Assembly: GCA_965223235.1 (NCBI GenBank)
Contig: CBDCVV010000016.1
Span: 92,108 to 156,107 of the forward strand
DNA: 64,000 nucleotides
Reading direction: 5' to 3'
DNA from: Longimicrobiales bacterium
GTDB taxonomy: Bacteria; Gemmatimonadota; Gemmatimonadetes; Longimicrobiales; Gaopeijiaceae
Part shown: in pieces, positions 13,017-27,857 of the stretch
Numbering within the stretch: the first letter of the stretch is position 1
Layout: the number at the start of each line of letters is the position of its first letter
Translations under genes and position numbers: made by a program
The notes under the pieces: model-generated
Databases searched by the model: none
What the model was told of the DNA's origin: nothing
The model's input: only the letters and a program-made list of their open reading frames with translations

Positions 13017-13694
13017 ATGCTGTTTCGTTCGATTGACCCCACACTCACCGGCACGGACAATCCAGTTCTCGGAGGAACACTCGTGGCGACTCGTAAGAAG
13101 AAACCTGCGGCCAAGAAGAAGACTGCCGCCAAGAAGAAGCGGGCAACGAAGAAGCCGGCCACGAAGAAGGCCTCCGGCGCGAAGAAGCGTCCGTCCCGGA
13201 AGACGGCACCGCGCAAGAAAGCCGCCAAGAAGGCGGTAGCGAAGGCCAAGAAGAAGGTGGCCAAGAAGAAGGCTGCGGTGAAGAAAGCCGCAAAGAAGAC
13301 GGTGAAGAAGACTAAGAAGACGGTCGCGAAGAAGAAGAAGACCGTCGCAAAGAAGGCCAAAAAGACGGTGAAGAAGGCCAAGAAGACCGTCGCGAAGAAG
13401 AAGAAGGCCGTCGCGAAGAAGAAGGCCACCAAGAAGAAGGTTGTAGCGAAGAAGAAGGCTACCAAGAAGAAGGCCGCCAAGAAGAAGGCCGTGGCGAAGA
13501 AGAAGACCGCCCGTAAGAAGCCTGCGGCGAAGAAGAAGACCGCTCGCAAGAAGCCGGCGGCCAAGAAGAAGACTGCTCGGAAGAAGCCCGCGGCCAAGAA
13601 GAAGACTGCTCGTAAGAAGCCTGCGGCGAAGAAGAAGACTGCTCGCAGAAAGCCCGCGGCCAAGAAGAAGACCACTCGGAAGAAGAAGAAGTAA
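13017..13694 (+). CDS. histone H1-like Lys/Ala-rich nucleoid-associated protein
   Basis: I chose the ATG at 13017 because the ORF from 12768 overlaps the divergent gene. Most of the protein is K/A/T/P repeats ending in about 6 copies of AKKKTARKKPA. Confidence 0.7.
   Translation: MLFRSIDPTLTGTDNPVLGGTLVATRKKKPAAKKKTAAKKKRATKKPATKKASGAKKRPSRKTAPRKKAAKKAVAKAKKKVAKKKAAVKKAAKKTVKKTKKTVAKKKKTVAKKAKKTVKKAKKTVAKKKKAVAKKKATKKKVVAKKKATKKKAAKKKAVAKKKTARKKPAAKKKTARKKPAAKKKTARKKPAAKKKTARKKPAAKKKTARRKPAAKKKTTRKKKK
13494..13691 (+). repeat. 33-bp in-frame tandem repeat, about 6 copies, inside the H1-like gene
   Basis: gcgaagaagaagaccgcccgtaagaagcctgcg and close variants start at 13494, 13527, 13560, 13593, 13626 and 13659. 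Confidence 0.85.
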
Positions 13695-18295: not shown

Positions 18296-18595
18296 CTAGA
18301 CGGCGGCGCCTTCCCACATCGTGTCGAGTGCGGCGCGCGTCTCCCGCAGTGCTCCGCGCCCAGCAGGTTCGACAGAGAAGTACTTCTTGGCACGTCCCCC
18401 ACGCTCGGAGCTCGGTGGTCCGAGCTCGTAGGTCAGGTACCCCTTATTAGCGAGCCGACGGAGGGCGGTATAGACGGCTCCGTACGAGACGTCTCGGCCA
18501 GTGCGTTGCTCGATCTCCTCACGGATCTCCATGCCGTACGCACGGTTCTCGAGACGAATGACCGCAAGAAGGACCAGCTGCTCGAACTCTCCCAT
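18296..18595 (-). CDS. PadR family transcriptional regulator
   Basis: 99 aa: MGEFEQLVLLAVIRLENRAYGMEIREEIEQRTGRDVSYGAVYTALRRLANKGYL is a typical PadR winged helix. Only this terminal part of the 331-aa ORF is credited. Confidence 0.85.
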   Translation of the reverse strand: MGEFEQLVLLAVIRLENRAYGMEIREEIEQRTGRDVSYGAVYTALRRLANKGYLTYELGPPSSERGGRAKKYFSVEPAGRGALRETRAALDTMWEGAAV

Positions 18596-18597
18596 GA

Positions 18598-21243
18598 CTA
18601 CTCCGATCGCAGCGCAACAACGGGCGATACCCGGACGGCCCGAGCGGCGGGCAGCACCGAGGCCGCGATCGCCGACGCTCCCAGCGCAAGGGATCCGAAC
18701 AGCACCGTAACCACCTCGGCCGCTCCGACACCATAGACGAACGATTCGATGACCCGGGTCGAACCCCACACACCCACGAGCCCGAACCCGATGCCCCAGA
18801 TGGCCAGCCGCACACCACGCTTCAACACCAAGCTCACGATCCCACCCCCAGCTGCTCCGAGTGCCATCCGAATTCCGAGCTCGCGGACGCGCCGAGAGAC
18901 GAAGTAGGAAACCGTACCGTAGATCCCTGCCGCCGCCAGAAAGAGCGCCGCGATCGCGAATACGGCGACCAGCGTGGTATAGAAGCGTCGTTGGGCCAAG
19001 GCCCGATCGACCCGCTCCGCCATAGTGCGTATCGCACCGGGGGGCTGCGTCGGGTCGACGGCCGCGACCGCCCCACGGACGCCATTGACGATCTCGACCG
19101 GATCCACGTCTGCTCCTATCACAACGAAGCCGGAACCACTCCAACCCTGGTTGAACGGGAGATAGGCTTCGCTGAGCGGCTCCTGCTCCATACCCCACTG
19201 ACGGACGGTGGCGACCACTCCGACCACTGTTAGCCACGGTGGGTTCGAGTCGAAGCCGAACTGCTTGCCGATGGGGTCCTCTCCCGGCCATACGTCCTCA
19301 GCCATCTGCTGGTTGATCAGGACACCCACGGCACCCGTGGCCGTGTCCGCTGCCTCCAGCAAGCGTCCCCTGAGGAGCGGGATACCCATGGCTTGGAAGT
19401 AGTCACCGAATACGCTCGAGACCTCGACGAGCGGCCCCTCACTACTACTGGCTCGAGTAGGGGCGTCCGCGAGCTGGACATTGCCGTTCGACCCTCCGGC
19501 TAGAGGCAGCTTGCTTACGAAGCCGACCTCTCGTACACCCGGAATCGCGTCGACCTCGTCAAGGATCTCCTCGTAGAACCGCTGCATGGCTCCACTGGCC
19601 TCGTACCGAGGGCCCGAGGCGTTGAGGGCCATCGTCAAGACCCCCCGAGTAGAGAAGCCCTGCTCCTGCCCCCTGACGTTCGCGTAGCTGCTGACGAGCA
19701 CCCCAGCGGCGTTGACCAAGATCAAGCCGACCGCGATCTGCACGACGATGAAGGTGTCACGCATGCGCTCCTTCTTCGGAGCCAGCGTCGAATGGCCGCC
19801 CTCCTTCACTCCGGAGGCGACGTCGGTCCGGGAGGCCAGGAGGGCAGGTAGGACGCCGAATACCAGCGACGTCGCTACGGAGGCGGCCACCGCAAAGAGT
19901 AGAACCGTTCCGTCGACACCGATCTGGTCGACACGGGGCACTGTAGGTGGGAGCAGGGATCGGAGTCGGTCAACGGCAAAGAAGGCCACTCCGATCCCAC
20001 CGACTGCCGCGATCGCCGAGAGAACAACGCTTTCGGCGAAGAGGAGACGGACCAGAGTGCGCCGGGAAGCCCCGAGGGCCGTCCGCACCGCCAGCTCACC
20101 CTCTCGCCCGGCTGCACGCGCCAGCAGAAGTCCGGCGACATTCGCACATGCGATGATGAGAACGAGAGCGGCAGCGGCCAGCAGCGTTCTGAACTGGGTG
20201 CCAGCCTCCCCATATCGATACTCGTGCGCGGTCTGCACGAGTGCGCCCCAGCCGCTGTTCGTTTCCGGATACTCGGCTTCGAGCTCAGCGGCGATGCGTT
20301 GCATATCCGCTCGCCCTGACTCAACGGGCACTCCGTCGCGGAGTCGAGCGATGACCGGATAGCTGTGGTTACCACGGCCCCCGTCGAAGAGCTCGTTGGG
20401 AAAGGGAGTGAAGAGCTCGTGGCTTCTGAGGCTACCCCAAGGCGAGGGGACGTCGAACCCCTCCGGCATGACACCCACGACCTCGTGCACCTCGCCGTTG
20501 ATCTCGAGACCTTCGCCGAGGGCGCCGGGCCGACTGTCGAAGAGTCGCCGCCAAAGAGCGTGGGTCAGAACAACAACCCTCGCTCCGTTCTGATCAGACT
20601 CCAACAGCGGCCGCCCATGGAGAGGCGGCACCTCCAGGACGTCGAAGGCGCTCCCGGTCACGGCGGTTCCATATACACGCTCGGCTTTATCGAGTCCGGT
20701 GAGATTGAAGAACCCGGGTCGAAGTGCAGCCATGCCTTCGAAGCTCCGCTGGCGTTCGACGAAGTCGAGGTAGTCCGGTCCGGATGCAGGGCCGCAGCAC
20801 CCGAAGGCCCCGAGCCCCATGACGACGACGATCTCCTCCGACTCTGGAAGGTCCAGAGGGTCGAGGAAGACCGCCTTGTACACACCGAAGAGTGAGGTCG
20901 TGAAGCCGACACCGACGGCGAGTGTCACCGCGATTGTGGCTGAAAATCCAGGGCGCCTAAGAAGCGCCCGTAGTGCTAGTCGAAGATCGTTTCCCCACAT
21001 GGCTATCCCCTCCCCCATCGGTTCTTCGCGCCGGAAGGCGTCGGCCTGTTCCGAGCACCAGGCGCGGAAGGCGGGCGCGAGCGACCGCACCGCCTGAGCG
21101 CGGTACCAAGCCCGCGCGGCGTGCTTACCGCGATGGGCGTGTCGCCGCCGGTACTCTTCCTCCGCGTCACCTCGGACTGCGTCGCGGTCCTCTGGGGCGA
21201 GGAATCTCCCAAGTAGCCACACCCACACCCTTCCCGGCTTCAC
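18598..21243 (-). CDS. duplicated FtsX/MacB-like ABC permease (ADOP-type)
   Basis: 881 aa from a GTG start with a GGGAGG RBS. Two MacB-periplasmic-plus-FtsX modules. The N-terminal leader (LAPEDRDAVRGDAEEEY) is typical of PadR-linked permeases. Confidence 0.85.
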   Translation of the reverse strand: MKPGRVWVWLLGRFLAPEDRDAVRGDAEEEYRRRHAHRGKHAARAWYRAQAVRSLAPAFRAWCSEQADAFRREEPMGEGIAMWGNDLRLALRALLRRPGFSATIAVTLAVGVGFTTSLFGVYKAVFLDPLDLPESEEIVVVMGLGAFGCCGPASGPDYLDFVERQRSFEGMAALRPGFFNLTGLDKAERVYGTAVTGSAFDVLEVPPLHGRPLLESDQNGARVVVLTHALWRRLFDSRPGALGEGLEINGEVHEVVGVMPEGFDVPSPWGSLRSHELFTPFPNELFDGGRGNHSYPVIARLRDGVPVESGRADMQRIAAELEAEYPETNSGWGALVQTAHEYRYGEAGTQFRTLLAAAALVLIIACANVAGLLLARAAGREGELAVRTALGASRRTLVRLLFAESVVLSAIAAVGGIGVAFFAVDRLRSLLPPTVPRVDQIGVDGTVLLFAVAASVATSLVFGVLPALLASRTDVASGVKEGGHSTLAPKKERMRDTFIVVQIAVGLILVNAAGVLVSSYANVRGQEQGFSTRGVLTMALNASGPRYEASGAMQRFYEEILDEVDAIPGVREVGFVSKLPLAGGSNGNVQLADAPTRASSSEGPLVEVSSVFGDYFQAMGIPLLRGRLLEAADTATGAVGVLINQQMAEDVWPGEDPIGKQFGFDSNPPWLTVVGVVATVRQWGMEQEPLSEAYLPFNQGWSGSGFVVIGADVDPVEIVNGVRGAVAAVDPTQPPGAIRTMAERVDRALAQRRFYTTLVAVFAIAALFLAAAGIYGTVSYFVSRRVRELGIRMALGAAGGGIVSLVLKRGVRLAIWGIGFGLVGVWGSTRVIESFVYGVGAAEVVTVLFGSLALGASAIAASVLPAARAVRVSPVVALRSE

Positions 21244-21323
21244 CCGTACCTCCCGTCGGCATCATATGCGACACAGTGTATCATATACATCTAGACACGA
21301 CAATCGTCGATTGGGTTGCGAGC

Positions 21324-22001
21324 GGGTAGGCGGAGGGTCACCGAGTGGGCGCCTCGGCTCGAACCCTCGACCTAGGTGCGGGGGTTCTCTCGACGGGCAG
21401 GTATGCAAAACCCTCTCAGATCTTGCGCGATCTGAAGGGGCTTCAGCGGAATGCGAGGGATGGAGCTGCGGTCGGCTACGCCGATCCTCGCTCGTCTCGG
21501 CGAGGGGCGGGTAGGCGGAGGTCACCGAGTGGGCGCCTCGGCTCGAACCCCTCGACCAGGGTGCGGGGGTTCACCGACCTCCGGGCGGGCGTGCGAAAGC
21601 CCCTCAAGGCCAGAGACCTGAGGGGCTTTGACGGAGCGCGAGGGATGGAGCTGCGGTCGGCTACGCCGATCCTCGCTCGTCTCGGCGAGGGGCGGGTAGG
21701 TGGAGGTCACCGAGTGGGCGCCTCGGCTCGAACCCCTCGACCTAGGTGCGGGGGTTCTTTTGAATACCTGACGGTTATGTGAAAACCCCTCAGGCCAGAG
21801 ACCTGAGGGGCTTTTACGGAGCGCGAGGGATGGAGCTGCGGTCGGCTACGCCGATCCTCGCTCGTCTCGGCGAGGGGTGGGTAGGCGGAGGTCACCGAGT
21901 GGGCGCCTCGGCTCGAACCCCTCGACCAGGGTGCGGGGGTTCACCGACTTCCGGGCGGGCGTGCGAAGGCCCCTCAAGGCCAGAGACTTGAGGGGCTTTT
22001 A
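21324..22001 (-). repeat. tandem array of about 3.7 x 185-bp tRNA-Ser(CGA) echo units
   Basis: gggtaggcggagg recurs at 21324, 21509, 21694 and 21879. The tRNA 3' 15-mer cggagcgcgagggat recurs at 21447 (degenerate), 21632 and 21817, and the real gene starts at 22002. Confidence 0.9.
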
Positions 22002-22084
22002 CGGAGCGCGAGGGATTCGAACCCCCAAGTCCTTTCGGACGCTCGCTTTCGAGGCGAGTGCATTAGCCATTCTGCCAGCGCTCC
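22002..22084 (-). tRNA. tRNA-Ser (anticodon CGA)
   Basis: Manual cloverleaf: GGAGCGC acceptor, anticodon arm CUCGC-CUCGAAA-GCGAG, long variable arm GUCC-GAAA-GGAC, T arm GGGGG-UUCGAAU-CCCUC. No encoded CCA. Confidence 0.9.
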
Positions 22085-22161
22085 TGATACCGTAGCGCGG
22101 GCGCGGTGGGGATCGCGAATCCACGCGGTGCGGATAGTTAGGCCGGTGTGGAGGTTGATTG

Positions 22162-22231
22162 CGCGGCTCGAACCTGCGGTTCGAACCGGAACCACATACT
22201 GACTTTGTCTAATATCGGGGTGCCCGGATTC
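22162..22231 (-). repeat. echo of the tRNA-Pro(CGG) 3' end plus its downstream flank
   Basis: 22162-22231 parallels 22293-22362. The shared sequence is cggctcgaacctgcggttcgaacc...ctgact...taatatcggggtgcccggattc. Identity to the gene ends after ggattc, inside the T-loop. Confidence 0.8.
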
Positions 22232-22345
22232 ATCTCGCTCACGCTCGATGGTCTCGCGGTAACCAGTCTGACTGAAGCCGATGAAATGGGCCGCTCGGCT
22301 CGAACCTGCGGTTCGAACCCGGATCCACTTGCTGACTCTTCCTAA

Positions 22346-22419
22346 TCGGGGTGCCCGGATTCGAACCGGGGACCTCTGCGACCCGAACGCAGCGCTCTAC
22401 CGGACTGAGCCACACCCCG
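22346..22419 (-). tRNA. tRNA-Pro (anticodon CGG)
   Basis: CGGGGUG acceptor, anticodon arm CUGCG-UUCGGGU-CGCAG, T arm CCCGG-UUCGAAU-CCGGG. 74 nt. Confidence 0.9.
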
Positions 22420-22439
22420 GACTACTCGGGTACCTGCAC

Positions 22440-22633
22440 CGACGGGGTGGGATTGAGCTGCGGGCGGCCATGCCGCCCTCGCTCCACTCGCGAGTCACCA
22501 CAGCAGGTACTCGCGTAGACCACCTGTCGCTCGAGTCGAACTCACGCGGCATCCTGCTTCGCAGTCTGCGTGGGTTCGAACGGGAGGGTCGTCGTGACTC
22601 TCTCGTCCACATTCTTCAGTGACTCTTTCAGAA
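22440..22633 (-). repeat. tRNA-Ser(GGA) echo unit
   Basis: gacggggtgggatt at 22441-22454 equals the 3' end of the gene at 22634. It is followed by gagctgcg, a 7-bp hairpin gggcggc-cat-gccgccc and ctcgc-tccactc-gcgag. An inverted T-arm-like gcgtgggttcgaac lies further on. Confidence 0.8.
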
Positions 22634-22716
22634 CGGACGGGGTGGGATTCGAACCCACGCGGACAATGTCCACACGATTTCCAATCGTGCGCCTTAAGCC
22701 ACTCGGCCACCCGTCC
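22634..22716 (-). tRNA. tRNA-Ser (anticodon GGA)
   Basis: GGACGGG acceptor, D-loop GCCGAGUGG, anticodon arm CACGA-UUGGAAA-UCGUG, long variable arm, T arm GUGGG-UUCGAAU-CCCAC. Confidence 0.9.
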
Positions 22717-22754
22717 AAGATGCGGCCGCAGGACTTCTGGCCGACTCTCCCGTT

Positions 22755-22936
22755 GAGGGAGTGGGATGGGCTCGCTGCGCGAGCCGCGTCGCGGAGCACC
22801 AGGGTGGTGCTTCGCGTGTTCGGGCGGGCCGCTCGGCTCAAACCCACTGCCGTCCTCGCTTCGCGAGTCCGGGTGGGTTCGAACTGGATGGTCTTGCGAC
22901 CGAGTTCGTCCACATGGCTTCTCGCGATGCGTTCAA
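22755..22936 (-). repeat. tRNA-Ser(GCU) echo unit
   Basis: gagggagtgggat at 22755-22767 equals the 3' end of the gene at 22937. It is followed by a 7-bp hairpin ggctcgc-tgc-gcgagcc. The unit also contains gccgctcggctcaaaccc, ctcgc-ttc-gcgag, gggtgggttcgaac and tcgtccacat, shared with the Ser(GGA) unit. Confidence 0.8.
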
Positions 22937-23020
22937 CGGAGGGAGTGGGATTCGAACCCACGCGGTGCAAGCACCAACGCCTTAGCAGGGCGCCGCCTTA
23001 AGCCACTCGGCCATCCCTCC
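22937..23020 (-). tRNA. tRNA-Ser (anticodon GCU)
   Basis: GGAGGGA acceptor, anticodon arm GCGCC-CUGCUAA-GGCGU, long variable arm, T arm GUGGG-UUCGAAU-CCCAC. Confidence 0.9.
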
Positions 23021-23030
23021 CTTCGAGCTA

Positions 23031-23103
23031 TAGCCCTGCTAGGGCTCGAACCTAGACTCTTCGGAACCAGAATCCGACGTGTTGCCAGTTACACCACAGG
23101 GCT
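23031..23103 (-). tRNA. tRNA-Gln (anticodon CUG)
   Basis: AGCCCUG acceptor, anticodon arm UCGGA-UUCUGGU-UCCGA, T arm CUAGG-UUCGAGC-CCUAG. 73 nt. Confidence 0.88.
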
Positions 23104-23120
23104 AAGAAAACAAAACCGAG

Positions 23121-23193
23121 AGCCACCAGTCGGACTTGAACCGACGACCCCGTCATTACGAGTGACGTGCTCTACCAGCTGAGCTATGGTGGC
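23121..23193 (-). tRNA. tRNA-Thr (anticodon CGU)
   Basis: GCCACCA acceptor, anticodon arm CGUCA-CUCGUAA-UGACG, T arm GUCGG-UUCAAGU-CCGAC. Confidence 0.9.
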
Positions 23194-23202
23194 AACCAGA
23201 AG

Positions 23203-23275
23203 TGGAGCCGAGGGGAATCGAACCCCTGACCTCAGCGTTGCGAACGCTGCGCTCTCCCAACTGAGCTACGGCCCC
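23203..23275 (-). tRNA. tRNA-Ala (anticodon CGC)
   Basis: GGGGCCG acceptor with G3:U70, anticodon arm CAGCG-UUCGCAA-CGCUG, T arm AGGGG-UUCGAUU-CCCCU. Confidence 0.9.
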
Positions 23276-23345
23276 GTACACGCCGCCCGTAGGGGCGGGC
23301 CGAGGGACGTGAGCGGTCCATAGCCCACAGAACTCGGCAGATTCA

Positions 23346-23419
<74 letters not shown>

Positions 23420-23443
23420 GACACCCGACTGTCAGGTCCTTCA

Positions 23444-23517
23444 TGCGCCCGGGAGGACTCGAACCCCCAACCTCCTGATCCGTAGTCAGGCACTCTATCC
23501 AATTGAGCTACGGGCGC
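23444..23517 (-). tRNA. tRNA-Arg (anticodon ACG)
   Basis: GCGCCCG acceptor, anticodon arm CCUGA-CUACGGA-UCAGG, T arm GGGGG-UUCGAGU-CCUCC. Confidence 0.9.
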
Positions 23518-23551
23518 TTTAACGCGAGCTCCGCCTTTGGACTCACGCCCC

Positions 23552-23682
23552 CTCTTGAGGGGTGAGACCCGAGTGCGTCGCAAGGCGGGCAAGGCGACGC
23601 GATCGAGGCGTACTCTTGTACGCCGCAGTGAGCGGAGACCGTAGCCCAACGCCGCGAGGCGCCGGAGATCACCCCTCAAGAG
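23552..23682 (-). other. 131-nt multi-stem structured spacer closed by 14-bp terminal inverted repeats
   Basis: ctcttgaggggtga (23552-23565) is the reverse complement of tcacccctcaagag (23669-23682). Internal 7-bp stems are gcgtcgc/gcgacgc and ggcgtac/gtacgcc. The element abuts the 3' end of tRNA-Leu(GAG). Confidence 0.6.
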
Positions 23683-23766
23683 TGCCCACGACAGGACTCG
23701 AACCTGTACGCCGTTTCCGGCACTGGTCCCTCAAACCAGCCTGTCTACCAATTTCAGCACGTGGGC
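23683..23766 (-). tRNA. tRNA-Leu (anticodon GAG)
   Basis: GCCCACG acceptor, anticodon arm CUGGU-UUGAGGG-ACCAG, long variable arm, T arm ACAGG-UUCGAGU-CCUGU. Confidence 0.9.
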
Positions 23767-23796
23767 TTATGAACTAACCGCCCGGGTGGGCGACAA

Positions 23797-23881
23797 TGCT
23801 CGAGGAGGGACTCGAACCCTCACGGGGTTAACCCCCACAGGGTCCTGAACCCTGCGCGTCTACCAATTCCGCCACCCGAGC
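23797..23881 (-). tRNA. tRNA-Leu (anticodon CAG)
   Basis: GCUCGGG acceptor, anticodon arm CAGGG-UUCAGGA-CCCUG, long variable arm, T arm GAGGG-UUCGAGU-CCCUC. Confidence 0.9.
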
Positions 23882-23923
23882 CCGCGATCGGTACTTCGGG
23901 CTTGCGGCGCCCGGGTTCCGACA

Positions 23924-23996
<73 letters not shown>

Positions 23997-24056
23997 CTCC
24001 ACACGACCTAGGGAGCCGCCTCCAGGGAGACGACTCCGTTTGTCAAATAACCTGAG

Positions 24057-24130
24057 CGGGGCTGACGAGACTCGAACTCGCGACCTCCGGTGTGACAGAC
24101 CGGCACTCTAACCGACTGAGCTACAGCCCC
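24057..24130 (-). tRNA. tRNA-Asp (anticodon GUC)
   Basis: GGGGCUG acceptor, anticodon arm CCGGU-CUGUCAC-ACCGG, T arm GCGAG-UUCGAGU-CUCGU. Confidence 0.9.
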
Positions 24131-24173
24131 AGGTTGTAAACAGCTGCCCTGCTTTTACTGCGGTCCTGCAAAA

Positions 24174-24245
24174 TACCCCGACGGGGAATTGAACCCCGAT
24201 TGCCAGGTTGAAAACCTGGTGTCCTAACCATTAGACGACCGGGGC
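24174..24245 (-). tRNA. tRNA-Glu (anticodon UUC)
   Basis: GCCCCGG acceptor (two G-U pairs), anticodon arm CCAGG-UUUUCAA-CCUGG, T arm CGGGG-UUCAAUU-CCCCG. Confidence 0.85.
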
Positions 24246-24261
24246 TCCTATTCCCGACGTA

Positions 24262-24334
24262 CAGGCCCGGAGGGACTCGAACCCCCAACCCCCGGTTTTG
24301 GAGACCGGTGCTCTACCAGTTGAGCTACGGACCT
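24262..24334 (-). tRNA. tRNA-Trp (anticodon CCA)
   Basis: AGGUCCG acceptor, anticodon arm CCGGU-CUCCAAA-ACCGG, T arm GGGGG-UUCGAGU-CCCUC. Confidence 0.9.
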
Positions 24335-24378
24335 CTAGCTCTCTTTTACCACATCCGCCGCGAGCGACGGTTTCCTCA

Positions 24379-24451
24379 TGGCCAGGGGCGGAATCGAACC
24401 GCCGACACCATGATTTTCAGTCATGTGCTCTACCAACTGAGCTACCTGGCC
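24379..24451 (-). tRNA. tRNA-Phe (anticodon GAA)
   Basis: GGCCAGG acceptor, anticodon arm CAUGA-CUGAAAA-UCAUG, T arm GGCGG-UUCGAUU-CCGCC. Confidence 0.9.
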
Positions 24452-24456
24452 CAGAC

Positions 24457-24491
24457 AAAAAACCCGCCCGGACCCTTTCGGCTCGGACGGG
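24457..24491 (-). terminator. rho-independent terminator inside the tRNA cluster
   Basis: Minus-strand read: CCCGUCCGAGCC-GAAA-GGGUCCGGGCGGG followed by UUUUUU, immediately upstream of tRNA-Phe. Confidence 0.7.
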
Positions 24492-24617
24492 AGTCAGCTC
24501 CGGAGAGATCGGTCTTACCGATCCTCCGCTCCCGCCCGCTGCCGCGGGCTCCACGAGTCGGAAACGATCCAGAGATCGGTACTTTGCACACCCGCTCCTT
24601 CAACGTTGCCGAACGTG
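24492..24617 (-). ncRNA. candidate small RNA between two terminator-like hairpins (unknown family)
   Basis: About 125 nt, bounded by the hairpin at 24618-24641 and the terminator at 24457-24491. Internal hairpins are cgatc-tctg-gatcg and gatcggt-aag-accgatc. No credible ORF and no match to SRP, 6S or tmRNA motifs that I can recall. Confidence 0.3.
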
Positions 24618-24641
24618 GGAAACGCCGCCCTTCGGCGGCGC
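24618..24641 (-). terminator. terminator-like hairpin just after tRNA-fMet
   Basis: Minus-strand read: CGCCGCC-GAAG-GGCGGCG followed by UUUCCC. 7-bp GC stem with a short U run. Confidence 0.45.
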
Positions 24642-24653
24642 TTCACAAACAAA

Positions 24654-24727
<74 letters not shown>

Positions 24728-24738
24728 ACAGGACGGAG

Positions 24739-24768
24739 AAGTTAGTCGAATCGCGGAGACGTGGTCAA
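24739..24768 (-). promoter_or_regulatory. candidate sigma70-type promoter for tRNA-fMet
   Basis: Minus-strand read: TTGACC, an 18-nt spacer, then TAACTT. The -10 hexamer ends 11 nt before the mature tRNA 5' end. Confidence 0.4.
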
Positions 24769-24837
24769 CCCGTTTCTTACGGCGGAAAGGAGCGCACATT
24801 GTACCCTGTCCGACTCCCACTAGGAGGGTGGTGACCG

Positions 24838-26073
24838 ATGCTTAGCTCCGTCTTCATGGATTTGGCCACGGCGCTCGGGTTGGGTCTGCTGGTGGGTCTT
24901 CAGAAGGAGCGGGCCGAGTCACCCCTGGCGGGCCTGCGCACGTTTGCGCTGGTTACCCTGAGCGGTTCTATAGCCGCGATCGTCGGAGAGGCCACGACGC
25001 CGTGGGTTGTTGTTGGTGGATTGCTGACAACGAGTGCGCTCATGGTGACGGGGAACGCCGTCCTTATGAAGGCCGAGGGCACGGACGCGGGCCAGACGAC
25101 GGAGGCCGCCGTGATCGTGATGTATCTGGTCGGCGCACTTGTGGTCGTCGCGCCCCGCGAGGTGGCGATTGTGTGCGGGGCGACCACCGCGATGTTGCTC
25201 CACCTTCGGGAAGAACTGAGAACGTGGGTGGATCGACTCAGCGATCGCGACGTGCGGGCGATCATGCAATTCGCCGTGATCTCGCTCGTGATCTTGCCAG
25301 TACTTCCCGATCAGGCGTACGGCCCTTACGAAGTGATCAACCCACGTCAGGTCTGGTGGATGGTTGTTCTGATCGTGGGGCTTAACCTCGCTGGCTACGG
25401 AGCTTTCCGACTCATGGGCGCGCGTGCGGGCACGGCCCTAGCAGGCGTGCTAGGCGGCGTGATATCGAGTACCGCGACGACTGTTTCCTATGCGCGACAG
25501 ACTAAGGCCGAGGGAGGGATGGAGGGCACCGCCGCCCTCGTAGTTTGGATCGCGTCTGGAGTCGTGTTCGTGCGTCTCTTGGTCGAGATCGGGGCCGTGG
25601 CTCCCGACTTTCTCCCGGTCGCGGCGGGCCCGTTGGTTGTGATGTTGGTGGTCTTCGCAGTGTTGGCTGGGTTGGTATGGCGGTCCGCGACGACCCCGGG
25701 TGAGATCCCTCTAGAGCCCGGAAACCCGACAGAGTTACGCCCCGCCATCTTCTTTGGCGCTTTGTACGCGTTCGTCCTCTTCATCGTGGCGGCCGGTCAG
25801 GACCTCATGGGAGACGCCGGGTTGTACGCGGCGGCCGCGGTCTCGGGGCTTACCGATGTGGATGCCATCACGTTATCCACGTCACGTCTCGTCGATACCG
25901 ACCGACTCGACCCCGATGTCGGGTGGCGCCTCGTCCTGATCGCGGTTCTTTCGAACCTGGTGTTCAAGCTCGGTCTGGCCGCGACCCTGGGCAGCCGGGA
26001 CTTTGCGAAGAAGCTCGGAAGGCTGGGTGCTGTGGCGCTCGCAGCGGGAGTGGGGATCTTGCTCCTCTGGTGA
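24838..26073 (+). CDS. MgtC/SapB-family plus DUF4010-type integral membrane protein
   Basis: 411 aa, polytopic. The N-terminus LGLGLLVGLQKERAESPLAGLRTFALVTLSG is typical of MgtC/DUF4010 proteins. GGAGGG RBS. Confidence 0.7.
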   Translation: MLSSVFMDLATALGLGLLVGLQKERAESPLAGLRTFALVTLSGSIAAIVGEATTPWVVVGGLLTTSALMVTGNAVLMKAEGTDAGQTTEAAVIVMYLVGALVVVAPREVAIVCGATTAMLLHLREELRTWVDRLSDRDVRAIMQFAVISLVILPVLPDQAYGPYEVINPRQVWWMVVLIVGLNLAGYGAFRLMGARAGTALAGVLGGVISSTATTVSYARQTKAEGGMEGTAALVVWIASGVVFVRLLVEIGAVAPDFLPVAAGPLVVMLVVFAVLAGLVWRSATTPGEIPLEPGNPTELRPAIFFGALYAFVLFIVAAGQDLMGDAGLYAAAAVSGLTDVDAITLSTSRLVDTDRLDPDVGWRLVLIAVLSNLVFKLGLAATLGSRDFAKKLGRLGAVALAAGVGILLLW

Positions 26074-26080
26074 GACGGTG

Positions 26081-26358
26081 GCCCAGCCGCATGCTGCGGC
26101 TGGGACCACCTATCGGGACGGCCGGATGTTGCTGCACGAGGCTCGGGCAGACGGTGGTTGAGAACATGGGCGTGCACCGATCCGGCGGTAGAAACAAGAA
26201 AGGCCCCAGCCGCATGCTGCGGCTGGGACCATCAATCGGGACGGCCGGATGTTGCTGCACGAGGCTCGGGCAGACGGTGGTTGAGAACATGGGCGTGCAC
26301 CGATCCGGCCGTGGAAACAAGAAAGGCCCCAGCCGCATGCTGCGGCTGGGACCACCCA
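26081..26358 (-). repeat. tandem array of about 2.3 x 123-bp tRNA-Pro(GGG) echo units
   Basis: tcgggacggccggat occurs at 26113 and 26236, and at 26359 in the real gene. The hairpin cccagccgca-tgc-tgcggctggg occurs at 26082, 26205 and 26328. Identity to the gene stops after ggat, inside the T-loop. Confidence 0.9.
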
Positions 26359-26432
26359 TCGGGACGGCCGGATTCGAACCGGCGACCCCCTGAACCCCAT
26401 TCAGGTGCGCTACCGGGCTGCGCCACGTCCCG
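26359..26432 (-). tRNA. tRNA-Pro (anticodon GGG)
   Basis: CGGGACG acceptor, anticodon arm CCUGA-AUGGGGU-UCAGG, T arm GCCGG-UUCGAAU-CCGGC. 74 nt. Confidence 0.9.
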
Positions 26433-26633
26433 TCTTCCGCGAACCGCCGGAAGGGACGACAAGCTACCTAATCAGGTAGATGTCGGGAACCATCGGGCCG
26501 CAGTGCTCTCTGGGTCCATATGGATGGCGGAGCTCCGCGGAGTCGGAGCAACCACGAGCTCGCCGGACACAGTCCTAGGGGGTAGAGAAGCACTCACCGC
26601 AGCTGGCGATCCCCTCAGTCCGGAGTCGACCGT

Positions 26634-27857
26634 ATGGTCACCGACCGCGTCTTGGTTTGCCTCGCCCTGTTCCTCTTGGTGTGCGCTTGTGGAGACGCCG
26701 ACTCGCTGGCAAGCGATTCCGACCTTGCCGGGACGGATGGGTCACCCCTTGAGTCGAAGATCGTCGAGAACGCCGGTTCGGGTGCTTGGGGGGCAGATGA
26801 TGCCTGGCGCTTGGAGGAGGTCATGGCCGCTGGGACTGGCTCGGGGTCAGAGAGGCCGTTTGGGGATGTTTCCGGGCTCGACGTGGATGAGGCCGGCAAC
26901 GTGTACGTGGCGGACAAGCTCGCGCAGGAGATCCGTGTCTTTGATGGGGCCGGGAACCCGCTTCGAACGATCGGCCGGGCAGGTTCGGGGCCGGGGGAGT
27001 TTGGGGGAAACATCGGCGGCGTCTTCGTTATTGGCCAAGAGTTGATTGTTCCTGATGTCGCTAATCAGCGGGTATCACGCTTCGCGTTGTCCGGGACCTT
27101 CATCGATTCTCGCCGAGTGAGTGCCGAGGCCGGGGTTCCGATTCGGTGGGATGTCGCGGACGGCCGCTTGGTGGCTCAACGCCGCAGGGTGGTGCCGGGA
27201 GATCGTGATGTGGTCGAGGGCGACCGGATCGTATCGCTGACTCCTCCTGAAGACACACTGGTCCTACTGCCGCCTGGCCAGGCCGTCCAGATCACCGGGG
27301 AGGGTCCGATCATCCGTCAATTCCATCCTGAACCGGTCTGGGACTCGACGTACGACGGGCGGCTCGTCATTGCCATGACAGACGAGTGGCGCTTCGTAGT
27401 TCGCGACGCCGGTGGCCGCGTGGAATGGGTGGCGACTCGACCGATGGAGACCGCGCGGACATCCTCCGCAGATCGTGACGCCGTGCGTACATCGCTGAGA
27501 GAGATGTACACACGACAAGGCATCCCGGCTGCGGCCAGGGAAGCCGTGATCGATCGCATGGAGTTCGCCGACCGACTTCCCGCTCTGACGTCGGTGATCT
27601 TCGGTCCCAATGATTCGCTGTGGGTCCGCCACTTCGTCGCGCCCTCGACTTCCGAAAGAGGACGCACACGAGTCCTGGTGGAGGAGATGGGGTCCACGGA
27701 TTGGAGTGTGTTCGACGCGACAGGCCACTACTTAGGGGACGTGTCGTTCCCCACAGACTTCACTCCCGTACAAGTTGTGGATGACCGCTTCTACGGAGTT
27801 GTGTTCAACGAGCACGACGTCCAATCCGTTCGCAGCTACCGCGTGGTCACCGAGTAG
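26634..27857 (+). CDS. beta-propeller (NHL/6-bladed-like) lipoprotein
   Basis: 407 aa with lipobox LLVCACG. GSGPGEFG-type NHL-like repeat signatures. Confidence 0.55.
   Translation: MVTDRVLVCLALFLLVCACGDADSLASDSDLAGTDGSPLESKIVENAGSGAWGADDAWRLEEVMAAGTGSGSERPFGDVSGLDVDEAGNVYVADKLAQEIRVFDGAGNPLRTIGRAGSGPGEFGGNIGGVFVIGQELIVPDVANQRVSRFALSGTFIDSRRVSAEAGVPIRWDVADGRLVAQRRRVVPGDRDVVEGDRIVSLTPPEDTLVLLPPGQAVQITGEGPIIRQFHPEPVWDSTYDGRLVIAMTDEWRFVVRDAGGRVEWVATRPMETARTSSADRDAVRTSLREMYTRQGIPAAAREAVIDRMEFADRLPALTSVIFGPNDSLWVRHFVAPSTSERGRTRVLVEEMGSTDWSVFDATGHYLGDVSFPTDFTPVQVVDDRFYGVVFNEHDVQSVRSYRVVTE

Follow-up and report, generated by a model that had tools for sequence, protein, structure and literature searches.

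Downstream of the tRNA-Pro(GGG) gene in a 64,000-nt stretch of contig CBDCVV010000016.1 from a Longimicrobiales bacterium (the full 64-kb stretch is called the window in what follows) there are tandem units of 123 bp, each of which repeats the 3' end of the gene and carries a strong hairpin. What are these units, and where do they come from? The comparison of the window with related contigs and loci (labelled L001-L142) places them in a Gemmatimonadota-wide and apparently undescribed family that is found beside particular tRNA genes and beside the transfer-messenger RNA (tmRNA) gene. We favour, with moderate confidence, the explanation that the 123-bp units are DNA-level relics of a small, hairpin-rich and probably mobile non-coding element, together with duplications derived from its target and amplified by unequal recombination. 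The window locus itself is a decayed, recently duplicated fossil of modest interest, and it points to a family that is worth following up.

The 123-bp array behind tRNA-Pro(GGG)

Tandem units behind tRNA-Pro(GGG) had been reported in the initial annotation of this DNA, and they are real: Tandem Repeats Finder (TRF) gave a period of 123 bp for positions 26082-26373 (2.4 copies, 96% matches, score 549), and a repeat search agreed: it returned two copies of 123 nt that match at 97%, as well as a block of 46 nt, made up of the hairpin, 8 nt and the tRNA fragment, which is present three times at a spacing of exactly 123 nt. We use the term echo for a partial copy of tRNA nt 59-73. On the minus strand a unit runs from an echo through a terminator-like hairpin, an inverted echo (ACGGCCGGAT) and a 52-nt insert to the next echo, so that the echo, hairpin and inverted segment described at the outset are all borne out by the sequence. 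What had been taken for 78 nt of unique sequence is not one unique block, and consists of the 15-nt T-rich tail of the hairpin, the 10-nt inverted echo and the 52-nt insert. The sequence tcgggacggccggat is found at 26113, 26236 and 26359, the last of these being the 3' end of tRNA-Pro(GGG) itself; there is thus a direct copy of tRNA nt 59-73, starting right after TTCGA, downstream of an intact gene. The echoes lack CCA. The features of the array are as follows.

26359-26432, minus strand: tRNA-Pro(GGG) (ARAGORN; Rfam tRNA 61.9 bits)
26373-26359, minus strand: echo 0, the reference copy, i.e., the last 15 nt of tRNA-Pro(GGG) (nt 59-73), ..TTCGA followed by ATCCGGCCGTCCCGA (from the sequence)
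26358-26351, minus strand: spacer of 8 nt
26315-26353, minus strand: terminator-like hairpin 1, GGTCCCAGCCGCAGCATGCGGCTGGGGCC then TTTCTTGTTT (terminator scan, hairpin pattern)
26350-26328, minus strand: stem-loop of hairpin 1, CCCAGCCGCA-GCA-TGCGGCTGGG
26327-26313, minus strand: T-rich tail of hairpin 1, GCCTTTCTTGTTTCC
26303-26312, minus strand: inverted echo of unit 1, ACGGCCGGAT, the reverse complement of tRNA nt 59-68 (longest inverted match, 10 nt; RNA fold)
26251-26302, minus strand: insert X of unit 1, 52 nt, with an inner helix TGCACG/CGTGCA and ending in CGTGCAGCAAC
26236-26250, minus strand: echo 1, ATCCGGCCGTCCCGA
26235-26128, minus strand: hairpin 2, tail, inverted echo and insert, in the order of unit 1
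26192-26230, minus strand: terminator-like hairpin 2 with T-rich tail
26180-26189, minus strand: inverted echo of unit 2, ACCGCCGGAT, with one mismatch to the perfect complement
26128-26179, minus strand: insert X of unit 2, identical to that of unit 1
26113-26127, minus strand: echo 2, ATCCGGCCGTCCCGA
26082-26104, minus strand: hairpin 3, without T-rich tail, 8 nt from the stop codon of the convergent gene
24838-26073, plus strand: convergent MgtC/DUF4010 membrane-protein gene, the outer boundary of the array (homologues with PF02308 and PF13194)

The hairpin CCCAGCCGCA/TGCGGCTGGG occurs three times, against no occurrence expected from 100 shuffles. Hairpins 1 and 2 (26353-26325 and 26230-26202) have 13 pairs each, 10 of them G-C, are followed by TTTCTTGTTT on the minus strand and are the strongest terminator-like sites within 21200-26800. 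Oriented like the gene upstream and made of a G+C-rich stem-loop and a T tract, both are predicted intrinsic terminators; hairpin 3 has no T tract. Units 1 and 2 differ at four positions (96.7% identity), one of which is the mismatch in the distal inverted echo. The 10-bp inverted match ACGGCCGGAT/ATCCGGCCGT that had been described for the units is therefore perfect in the tRNA-proximal unit, and one mismatch short of it in the distal one (ACCGCCGGAT). Six of its ten bases form the palindrome CGGCCG, and echo, hairpin and inverted echo together make up one long interrupted palindrome. The three 8-nt spacers all differ from each other.

The closest homologues of the MgtC/DUF4010 protein are from Gemmatimonadota/Longimicrobiales, the best at 80% identity; a look-up of the exact protein of the window gave no record. 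A resemblance between the insert and the end of this gene (26128-26160 vs. 26040-26081; shared AGACGGTGG and a loose GGAT.TTGCT) was considered and dismissed as not significant, 129 of 2000 shuffles (6%) being as good. At this locus the only evident effect of the array is to place three stacked terminator hairpins between two convergent genes.

A core element at tRNA and tmRNA genes

It had been claimed from the sequence of the window that the phenomenon is not a single local duplication, and this was confirmed, because related units follow four other tRNA genes of the window. These units contain a core of ca. 82 nt. Its anatomy was derived from an alignment of 43 copies and its structure from RNAalifold and then from a covariance model (R1), which was run over the window and the related loci and retrieved 125 copies in 84 loci. 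Six significant copies (33-88 bits) lie in the window behind the four tRNAs, all of them in the tail of a tRNA cluster that ends with Ser(GCT), Ser(GGA), Pro(CGG) and Ser(CGA), and behind each of these genes stands a copy of nt 59-73 of that gene, starting right after TTCGA. Sequences common to the units behind these four tRNAs include GGTTCGAGCCGAG and, directly before the echo, GAGCGAGGATCGGC..GCCGACCGCAGCTCC.

21322-22016, minus strand: array of 185 nt x 3.8 after tRNA-Ser(CGA), with units composed of an echo (ATCCCTCGCGCTCCGT), a hairpin and an intact core (TRF)
21816-21922, 21631-21737 and 21446-21552, minus strand: intact cores of the Ser(CGA) array (covariance model, 85.7-87.9 bits)
21271-21368, minus strand: truncated core of the Ser(CGA) array (covariance model, 13.3 bits)
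22214-22309, minus strand: core and echo (AATCCGGGCACCCCGA) after tRNA-Pro(CGG) (41.8 bits, E 4e-9)
22438-22545, minus strand: core and echo after tRNA-Ser(GGA) (65.8 bits)
22752-22847, minus strand: degenerate core and echo after tRNA-Ser(GCT) (32.8 bits, E 8e-7)

The core is a discrete element of constant length with ca. 35 invariant bases. It begins with (G/A)CCGAGCGGCC, has a hypervariable middle and ends in an invariant right part, CCGCGAGA-s-GAGCGAGGATCG-(hairpin)-CGACCG-s-AGCTC(C/A). The GA on its left is invariant (mostly within TCGA or CTGA), and AT follows on its right in at least 90% of the copies. The junctions are clean, with neither terminal inverted repeats (TIRs) nor target duplication. 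Direct head-to-tail dimers are found in L033 (1085-1257), L054 and L012, where ..GCAGCTCA is joined to GCCGAGCGG.. with no flank between them, and the ends of the core are therefore fixed.

The place at which the core is found is as well defined as its ends: it interrupts a partial tRNA copy exactly between GA and AT, either at 58/59 in the T-loop or at 31/32 in the anticodon loop. In the T-loop context ..GGTTCGA precedes the core and ATCC.. follows it (T-stem 3' strand, acceptor 3' strand and nt 73). In the anticodon-loop context, seen in ca. 10 contigs, the core is preceded by nt 1-31 of tRNA-Pro(GGG) (..CACCTGA) and followed by ATGGGGTTCAGGGG (nt 32-45), and in L083 it stands between tRNA nt 32-58 and nt 59-73. 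Because the core sits inside tRNA-like loops in all three contexts, the echo amounts to the right flank of a partial gene copy, which is interrupted by the core and adjoins the intact gene.

RNAalifold found three helices in the core, and the resulting model combines helices P1, P2 and P3 with the invariant CGAG..GAGA.GAGCGAGGATCG..CGACCG.AGCTC. Over the 125 copies 97.8% of the pair cells are paired, 14 of the 15 pairs show changes on both sides (158 cells with such changes), none of 500 shuffles was as high and slid controls were only 21-43% paired, a large margin even for an alignment that was fitted to the model and is hence biased toward structure. Among the fully compensated variants of P1 are GGCGC/GCGCC, GACCGCGG/CCGCGGTC and, in L005, CGTTTGCGA/TCGCAAACG. 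The fold of the core is real and constrained. Its subterminal hairpin is bulged, the foot GAGC pairing with the element end GCTC; the right-end hairpin P2 is conserved, and the left end consists of the P1 helix and a variable hairpin. Every hairpin has a C-GNA-G triloop, and among 1666 pair cells there are 9 G.T and 10 A.C, with no preference for G.U, which are weak hints that the fold should be read as DNA rather than RNA. The core was also considered as a degenerate class II tRNA, a kink-turn (K-turn), a hammerhead or a bulge-helix-bulge (BHB) intron, and these were set aside, with no consistent match by eye and no support from Rfam.

Related Gemmatimonadota contigs share the tRNA cluster and have units of this kind. 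Echoes follow tRNA-Pro(GGG) in 9 of 17 loci, Pro(CGG) in 5 of 13, Pro(TGG) in 3 of 4, Cys in 5 of 8, Arg(CCG) in 3 of 4 and Val in 1 of 12; for the serine tRNAs the figures are 6/13 (GGA), 5/12 (CGA), 3/13 (GCT) and 3/4 (TGA). A core also stands behind tRNA-Pro(TGG) in L031, an uncultured Gemmatimonas contig. The tmRNA gene has them as well, with a core and an echo of the tmRNA 3' end within ca. 150-180 nt of the genes of L065, L095, L113 and L126. No echo was found in the same clusters behind the tRNAs for Met (0/18), Phe, Trp, Glu, Asp, Leu, Thr, Gln or Arg(ACG), the types without echo numbering 11, each sampled 11-18 times. The lone exception is a tRNA-Trp 3' match in L018 at a distance of 3221 nt. 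In all ca. 150 loci the echo spacing is 49-781 nt, except for this 3.2-kb case, which contains only beta-propeller genes and no recombinase.

Copy number varies between related genomes. At 13 distinct tRNA-Pro(GGG) loci there are 0, 1 or 2 units, and other tRNAs have up to three echoes. The Pro(GGG) units of the relatives consist of an echo, a hairpin of their own, a T-run, ACGGCSGGAT, an insert and an echo, and this architecture is found at the orthologous locus in L001, L013, L038, L058, L074, L096 and L114, with hairpins and inserts that differ even inside one array (L038, L058). L013 (OZ245038.1, recorded as 'chromosome: 1') has one such unit and an extra bare echo 45 nt past it. In L005 and L127 the cores at different tRNAs of one contig are mutual nearest relatives and the echoes are specific to each locus, in what is a small sample.

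A second arrangement is found upstream of tRNA-Pro(GGG). It comprises a promoter-like spacer, nt 1-31, the core and nt 32-45, is present once or twice, each time with its own copy of the spacer, and is followed by an inverted copy of ca. nt 42-50 (CGACCCCC). Carriers are L013, L038, L039, L041, L053, L058, L096, L112, L117, L122 and L142. The module of this upstream element is perfectly conserved across diverged contigs, a conservation that could mean function rather than mobility. In the window it is represented by one feature.

26433-26640, minus strand: decayed remnant of the upstream element (tRNA nt 1-31, core, nt 32-45), ..CCGCGGAGCTCC joined to GCCATCCATATGGACCC..GGTTCCCGAC (comparison with L142, L058, L122 and others)

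The units behind the window's own tRNA-Pro(GGG) are decayed too. There the covariance model reached 6.7 bits (E 4.1; 26112-26152 and 26235-26275), against 33-88 bits at the six other window sites, and therefore these units have no recognisable core. They retain the hairpin, the inverted echo, the echo and a CGYGCAG vestige, the CGTGCAGCAAC at the end of the insert being the vestige of the core 3' end GACCGCAGCTCC. Only three features of this insert align with those of L058, L114, L038, L096 and L001, namely the T-run, the inverted echo and, 3-5 nt ahead of the echo, a CG(Y)GCAG vestige. The length of the insert ranges from 19 to ca. 110 nt among genomes, some of which are without any unit; L114 and L096 have intermediate deletion derivatives, and L001, L013 and L074 have a full core at the same place. 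The low score, the vestige, the intermediates and the full cores of the relatives indicate that the locus holds decayed members of the family, one of them recently duplicated (96.7%).

The initial annotation had also proposed that the unit folds into a long closing helix, whose conservation in homologous copies would be the test. Behind tRNA-Pro(GGG) the window shares an inverted echo of 9 nt or more with L013, L034, L038, L058 and L096, and ACGGCCGGAT can also be read directly in L001, L114 and L117. In L058 a variant of the tRNA T-stem is mirrored in both echoes and inverted echoes, ATCCCGCC being paired with ACGGCGGGAT. The closing helix is thus conserved, because the inverted echo recurs and tracks this variant. 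Over 62 units an inverted echo of at least 8 nt is found in 22 and one of at least 10 nt in 12, vs. 1 of 310 mismatched controls. It is confined to Pro- and Cys-type units; in those of the Ser and Arg types it is nt 44-58 that are copied in inverted form. Two pairing partners are open to the inverted echo, the 3' strand of the tRNA on the far side of the terminator and the next echo on the far side of the insert, and in long-form units at Pro and Cys genes inverted echo and echo close a five-way junction (14-17 bp in L034, L028 and L044).

What does this helix mean? In the window it has 10 bp (the T stem and three acceptor pairs) and is mismatched in unit 2; the CCCGA is left unpaired, and the window helix is therefore no acceptor-stem mimic. 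A tRNA-like minihelix, in which the discriminator end is free and the 7-bp acceptor stem stacks on the T stem, is not formed in the window; L034 and L026 do form one, at 15-17 bp. In these same two loci the inverted copy runs on into trailer bases that are not part of the tRNA, and was therefore copied from DNA and not selected base by base. Folding is better than that of shuffled sequences (z = -2.7 for the insert alone, -3.8 for the whole unit). The structural reading first given to the units was consequently right only in part, namely about the anatomy and about a conserved closing helix; that helix is conserved as a templated DNA fold-back, which by itself is no proof of selection on an RNA.

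How far does the family extend? One scan of GTDB genomes for the module pattern gave 24 stretches, mostly from Gemmatimonadota, and one scan of metagenomes gave more than 120, about half of them genuine. IMG/VR, phage records and plasmids gave no match. When Rfam 15 was searched with the window and 23 related loci, only tRNA and tmRNA were found at threshold, and the units and cores were not covered even at permissive thresholds (E up to 5). The motif is absent from the papers of the literature library that was searched. Uncharacterised repeats of 90 and 150 bp have been described in Gemmatimonadota chromosomes (PMC11237797), whose identity with this family is not established.

Several other observations were made along the way. 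The tRNA cluster of the window comprises 17 genes (22002-24728: Met, Phe, Trp, Glu, Asp, Ala, Leu, Leu, Arg, Val, Ala, Thr, Gln, Ser, Ser, Pro, Ser), in an order that is kept across Gemmatimonadota contigs (L005, L038, L039, L096), and several assemblies break at or near it. In the Ser(CGA) array, far better preserved than that of Pro(GGG), two unit subtypes alternate and a 370-nt period fits better than the 185-nt one. Between this array and a MacB-like permease gene there is an A+T-rich stretch with inverted repeats (21250-21320; tgtcgtgtctagatgtatatgatacactgtgtcgcatatgatg), which may be an operator region, and an open reading frame (ORF) at 18296-19291, overlapping the permease ORF, has a weak PadR match (PF03551, 46.7 bits). 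Long tandem repeats rich in AAGAAG (periods of 15-99 nt) occupy 13095-13685 of the window and would fit a repeat protein rich in lysine and alanine. The core module is also found away from tRNA genes in L037, L067, L077 and L102 (before a GGGGGGAAGG..CCCCCC hairpin) and in L046, L061, L071, L085 and L105; in L046 and L061 it lies within a GGTAG/CTACC stem. A tRNA-Trp 3' fragment, from the anticodon loop to the 3' end and with a shortened, reversed core in its T-loop, is present in L008, L011, L015, L016, L017, L018, L025 and L120. It is followed by a run of GTCCC repeats, and the opposite flanks differ between contigs. We considered these repeats as the attachment-site arm of an integrative element and rejected the idea, since in L008 they precede a MacB/FtsX-type permease gene and no recombinase was found in L008, L018 or L025. 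Pfam scans of the few neighbouring genes tested gave MacB/FtsX, PadR, beta-propeller, peptidase and carbonic-anhydrase matches, and no transposase, integrase or nuclease.

Origin of the units

In the explanation that we favour, the core would be a small non-autonomous insertion element handled as folded single-stranded DNA, and its closest analogue would be a hairpin-ended miniature element of the IS200/IS605 type. That the core behaves like an element is suggested by its defined ends, the lack of TIRs and of target duplication, the fixed GA, the bulged hairpin, the dimers and the similarity of copies within a genome. The inverted echo would be a fold-back copy of the same DNA as the echo, each unit having its own terminator, and arrays would grow and shrink by unequal homologous recombination between the echo and hairpin repeats (46 nt, 96-100% identical in the window). 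At the Pro(GGG) array of the window the core probably decayed first and the unit was duplicated recently afterwards. Events at the level of DNA are also favoured by the echoes without CCA, the trailer bases in the inverted copy, G.T pairs as rare as A.C and the C-GNA-G triloops. An origin from mature tRNA by reverse transcription was considered too: the modified base m1A58 stops reverse transcriptases, and a boundary at nt 59 fits that stop. We discarded it on account of the echoes without CCA and of copies that include trailer, terminator and promoter-like DNA.

Several facts weigh against a mobile element. No transposase, integrase or nuclease gene adjoins any copy among the few neighbours tested, and the left and right hairpins are unlike each other, contrary to what is expected of IS200/IS605. 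A 4-nt target, TCGA, predicts copies all over the genome, whereas the six significant copies in the 64 kb of the window are all in tRNA flanks. To our knowledge, no transposition chemistry yields an intact gene together with a direct and an inverted partial copy. At syntenic sites the module is perfectly conserved where the MgtC proteins are only 65-80% identical, which would equally fit a function for the host. As to the window itself, the homology between insert and core rests on position and on an 8-of-11 vestige, with no significant score. A bolder proposal, which we put forward tentatively, is an undescribed class of non-coding, hairpin-rich element that homes specifically to GA/AT in the T- and anticodon loops of tRNA and tmRNA genes and keeps the gene whole by copying the displaced segment both directly and as a fold-back. 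The echo, identical to the target and next to the conserved hairpin module, might then serve as a guide (RNA or single-stranded DNA) for finding the target, and the 123-bp units would be fossils of the element.

Could the units instead be, or have been, small structured RNAs made along with the tRNA, in which inverted echo and echo form a closing helix like that of the acceptor and T stems (a tRNA minihelix whose T-loop is replaced by the insert), processed by tRNA enzymes and ended by their own terminator? We consider this rather unlikely. A closing helix is indeed found at the same locus in independent assemblies and follows the T-stem variant of L058, it reaches 14-17 bp and closes a five-way junction in L034, L028 and L044, and every unit keeps a terminator even though the terminator sequences differ within single arrays (L038, L058). 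The units fold better than shuffles, the core covaries strongly, and position 58/59 is where T-loop motifs tolerate insertions. Nevertheless, a strong terminator stands ahead of every unit, so that little transcription is expected to reach it; the distal helix is mismatched, the insert varies freely in sequence and from 19 to ca. 110 nt in length, and some genomes do without units. Moreover, Ser- and Arg-type units have no such helix, the CCCGA of the window is unpaired, there is no wobble preference and Rfam has no match. A related possibility would make core and echo the scaffold and guide of an RNA like those of TnpB, TldR or Cas12, the 14-16-nt echo directing a protein encoded elsewhere to the tRNA gene, where the target is preceded by GA (T-C/T-G-A). 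It is true that in both the T-loop and anticodon types the hairpin module ends 8 nt before a 13-16-nt segment identical to the target, that the anticodon-type match stops after ca. 14 nt with more tRNA sequence on offer, that the base pair before the target is invariant, and that the architecture is that of an IS200/IS605 right end. We regard a guide RNA as very improbable all the same, as no TnpB, IscB or Cas gene adjoins the tested copies, no guide-RNA family of Rfam matches, the core is short for a scaffold, the 123-bp units have none, and such a guide would target an essential gene of its own genome 100-200 nt away.

Tyrosine integrases classically use T-loop and anticodon-loop boundaries and have tRNA and tmRNA genes as targets, and the units could be scars of serial integrations at the tRNA 3' end, each of which brought nt 59-73 and a terminator, displaced the previous copy outward and later lost its body, the core being arm sequence next to the attachment-site repeats. 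A direct repeat of the 3' part of the tRNA that starts in the T- or anticodon loop is what would be left. The different hairpins within one array would suit independent arrivals, as would the bare echo 45 nt past the unit of L013, and, as in classical attachment sites, the L083 and tRNA-Trp fragments extend from the anticodon loop as far as the 3' end. This origin is nonetheless unlikely: in the ca. 150 loci no echo pair is more than 800 nt apart but for the 3.2-kb case with its beta-propeller genes, no integrase was seen among the tested neighbours, and viral, phage and plasmid records gave no match. Rather than standing next to a complete T-arm, the core splits it; in anticodon-type units it is the 5' half and a promoter-like spacer, and not the 3' part, that were duplicated; and one and the same core serves ca. 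ten different tRNA sequences. A purely local accident, i.e., slippage or template switching at the T-arm and terminator palindrome with no element inserted at the locus, would account for a simple 123-bp tandem of 96.7% identity with a long interrupted palindrome and no recognisable core. We find it improbable, since many genomes have this architecture at the orthologous locus, where hairpins and inserts differ and several cases include a full core, since it is also seen at nine other gene types, always with an echo start at nt 59, and since the CGYGCAG vestige stands just before the echo. An expansion of the repeat by the assembler is scarcely credible. Related assemblies do often break near the tRNA cluster, and L001-L004 start 140-260 nt before the MgtC gene; against this, the copies differ at four positions, the three 8-nt spacers are all different, and many independent assemblies have the same architecture, including the single unit of L013.

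Significance and comparison with known systems

Should the family prove mobile, we would be dealing with a site-specific element that lands in the most conserved loops of biology without destroying the genes, and that does so by a chemistry of duplication and fold-back not described for bacterial insertion elements. If it is a structure of the host, in RNA or in DNA, it would be a strongly covarying, phylum-wide motif missing from Rfam and tied to the expression of tRNA and tmRNA. Either way, the units break metagenome assemblies at tRNA clusters, create spurious ORFs and change the termination of tRNA operons.

The elements that the core most resembles are the miniature elements of IS200/IS605 (palindrome-associated transposable elements, PATEs) and the repetitive extragenic palindromes (REPs) and their paired form (REPINs) that are moved by Y1 transposases. 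Like them it is small and non-coding, lacks TIRs and target duplication, has a bulged subterminal hairpin whose foot pairs with the element end over 4 nt, follows only a short conserved left flank, is orientation-specific and has triloops of the DNA type. The core shares with PATEs the insertion 3' of a fixed short sequence without TIRs or target duplication. It differs in that its left and right hairpins are dissimilar, where PATEs have similar hairpins at both ends, its copies are confined to tRNA-like loops, and direct and inverted target duplications flank it; nor do the neighbouring genes tested encode a cognate Y1 (HUH) transposase. Unlike REPs, bacterial interspersed mosaic elements (BIMEs) and REPINs, the core is made of several helices and is not a single palindrome, and its significant copies in the 64 kb are found only at tRNA flanks. 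As regards the RNAs that guide TnpB, IscB and Cas12, whose scaffold lies next to the nuclease gene, the echo does abut a conserved hairpin module, but no nuclease gene was seen near the tested copies and Rfam gave no guide-RNA match.

The echoes recall the left and right attachment-site repeats (attL/attR) of integrative elements such as genomic islands and prophages, where the 3' part of a gene, from the T- or anticodon loop onwards, is likewise copied downstream of the intact gene, the same classes of target are used and tandem accretion is possible. Here, in contrast, the repeats are 50-800 nt apart with no recombinase or cargo between them, the T-arm is split by the core, there is an inverted copy, and in one type it is the 5' half that is duplicated. 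Introns at non-canonical positions of tRNAs, such as those in archaeal T-loops, and tRNA-like minihelices, such as the tRNA-like domain of tmRNA, provide a parallel for an insertion in the T- or anticodon loop and, for some of the units, for a closing helix equivalent to the acceptor and T stems, but our fragments lie beside an intact gene in bacterial hosts, and no splicing motif was identified. The G+C-rich stems of 10-13 bp with a T-rich tract, after the tRNA and after each echo, are like the intrinsic terminators of tRNA operons, except that they are stacked three times within a larger repeat and that the third copy has no T tract. Finally, a tandem unit of 100-190 bp whose copy number varies between related genomes is reminiscent of intergenic variable-number tandem repeats (VNTRs), e.g., the mycobacterial interspersed repetitive units (MIRUs), from which this family is set apart by units that contain the end of the adjacent gene and by its specificity for the flanks of tRNA and tmRNA genes.

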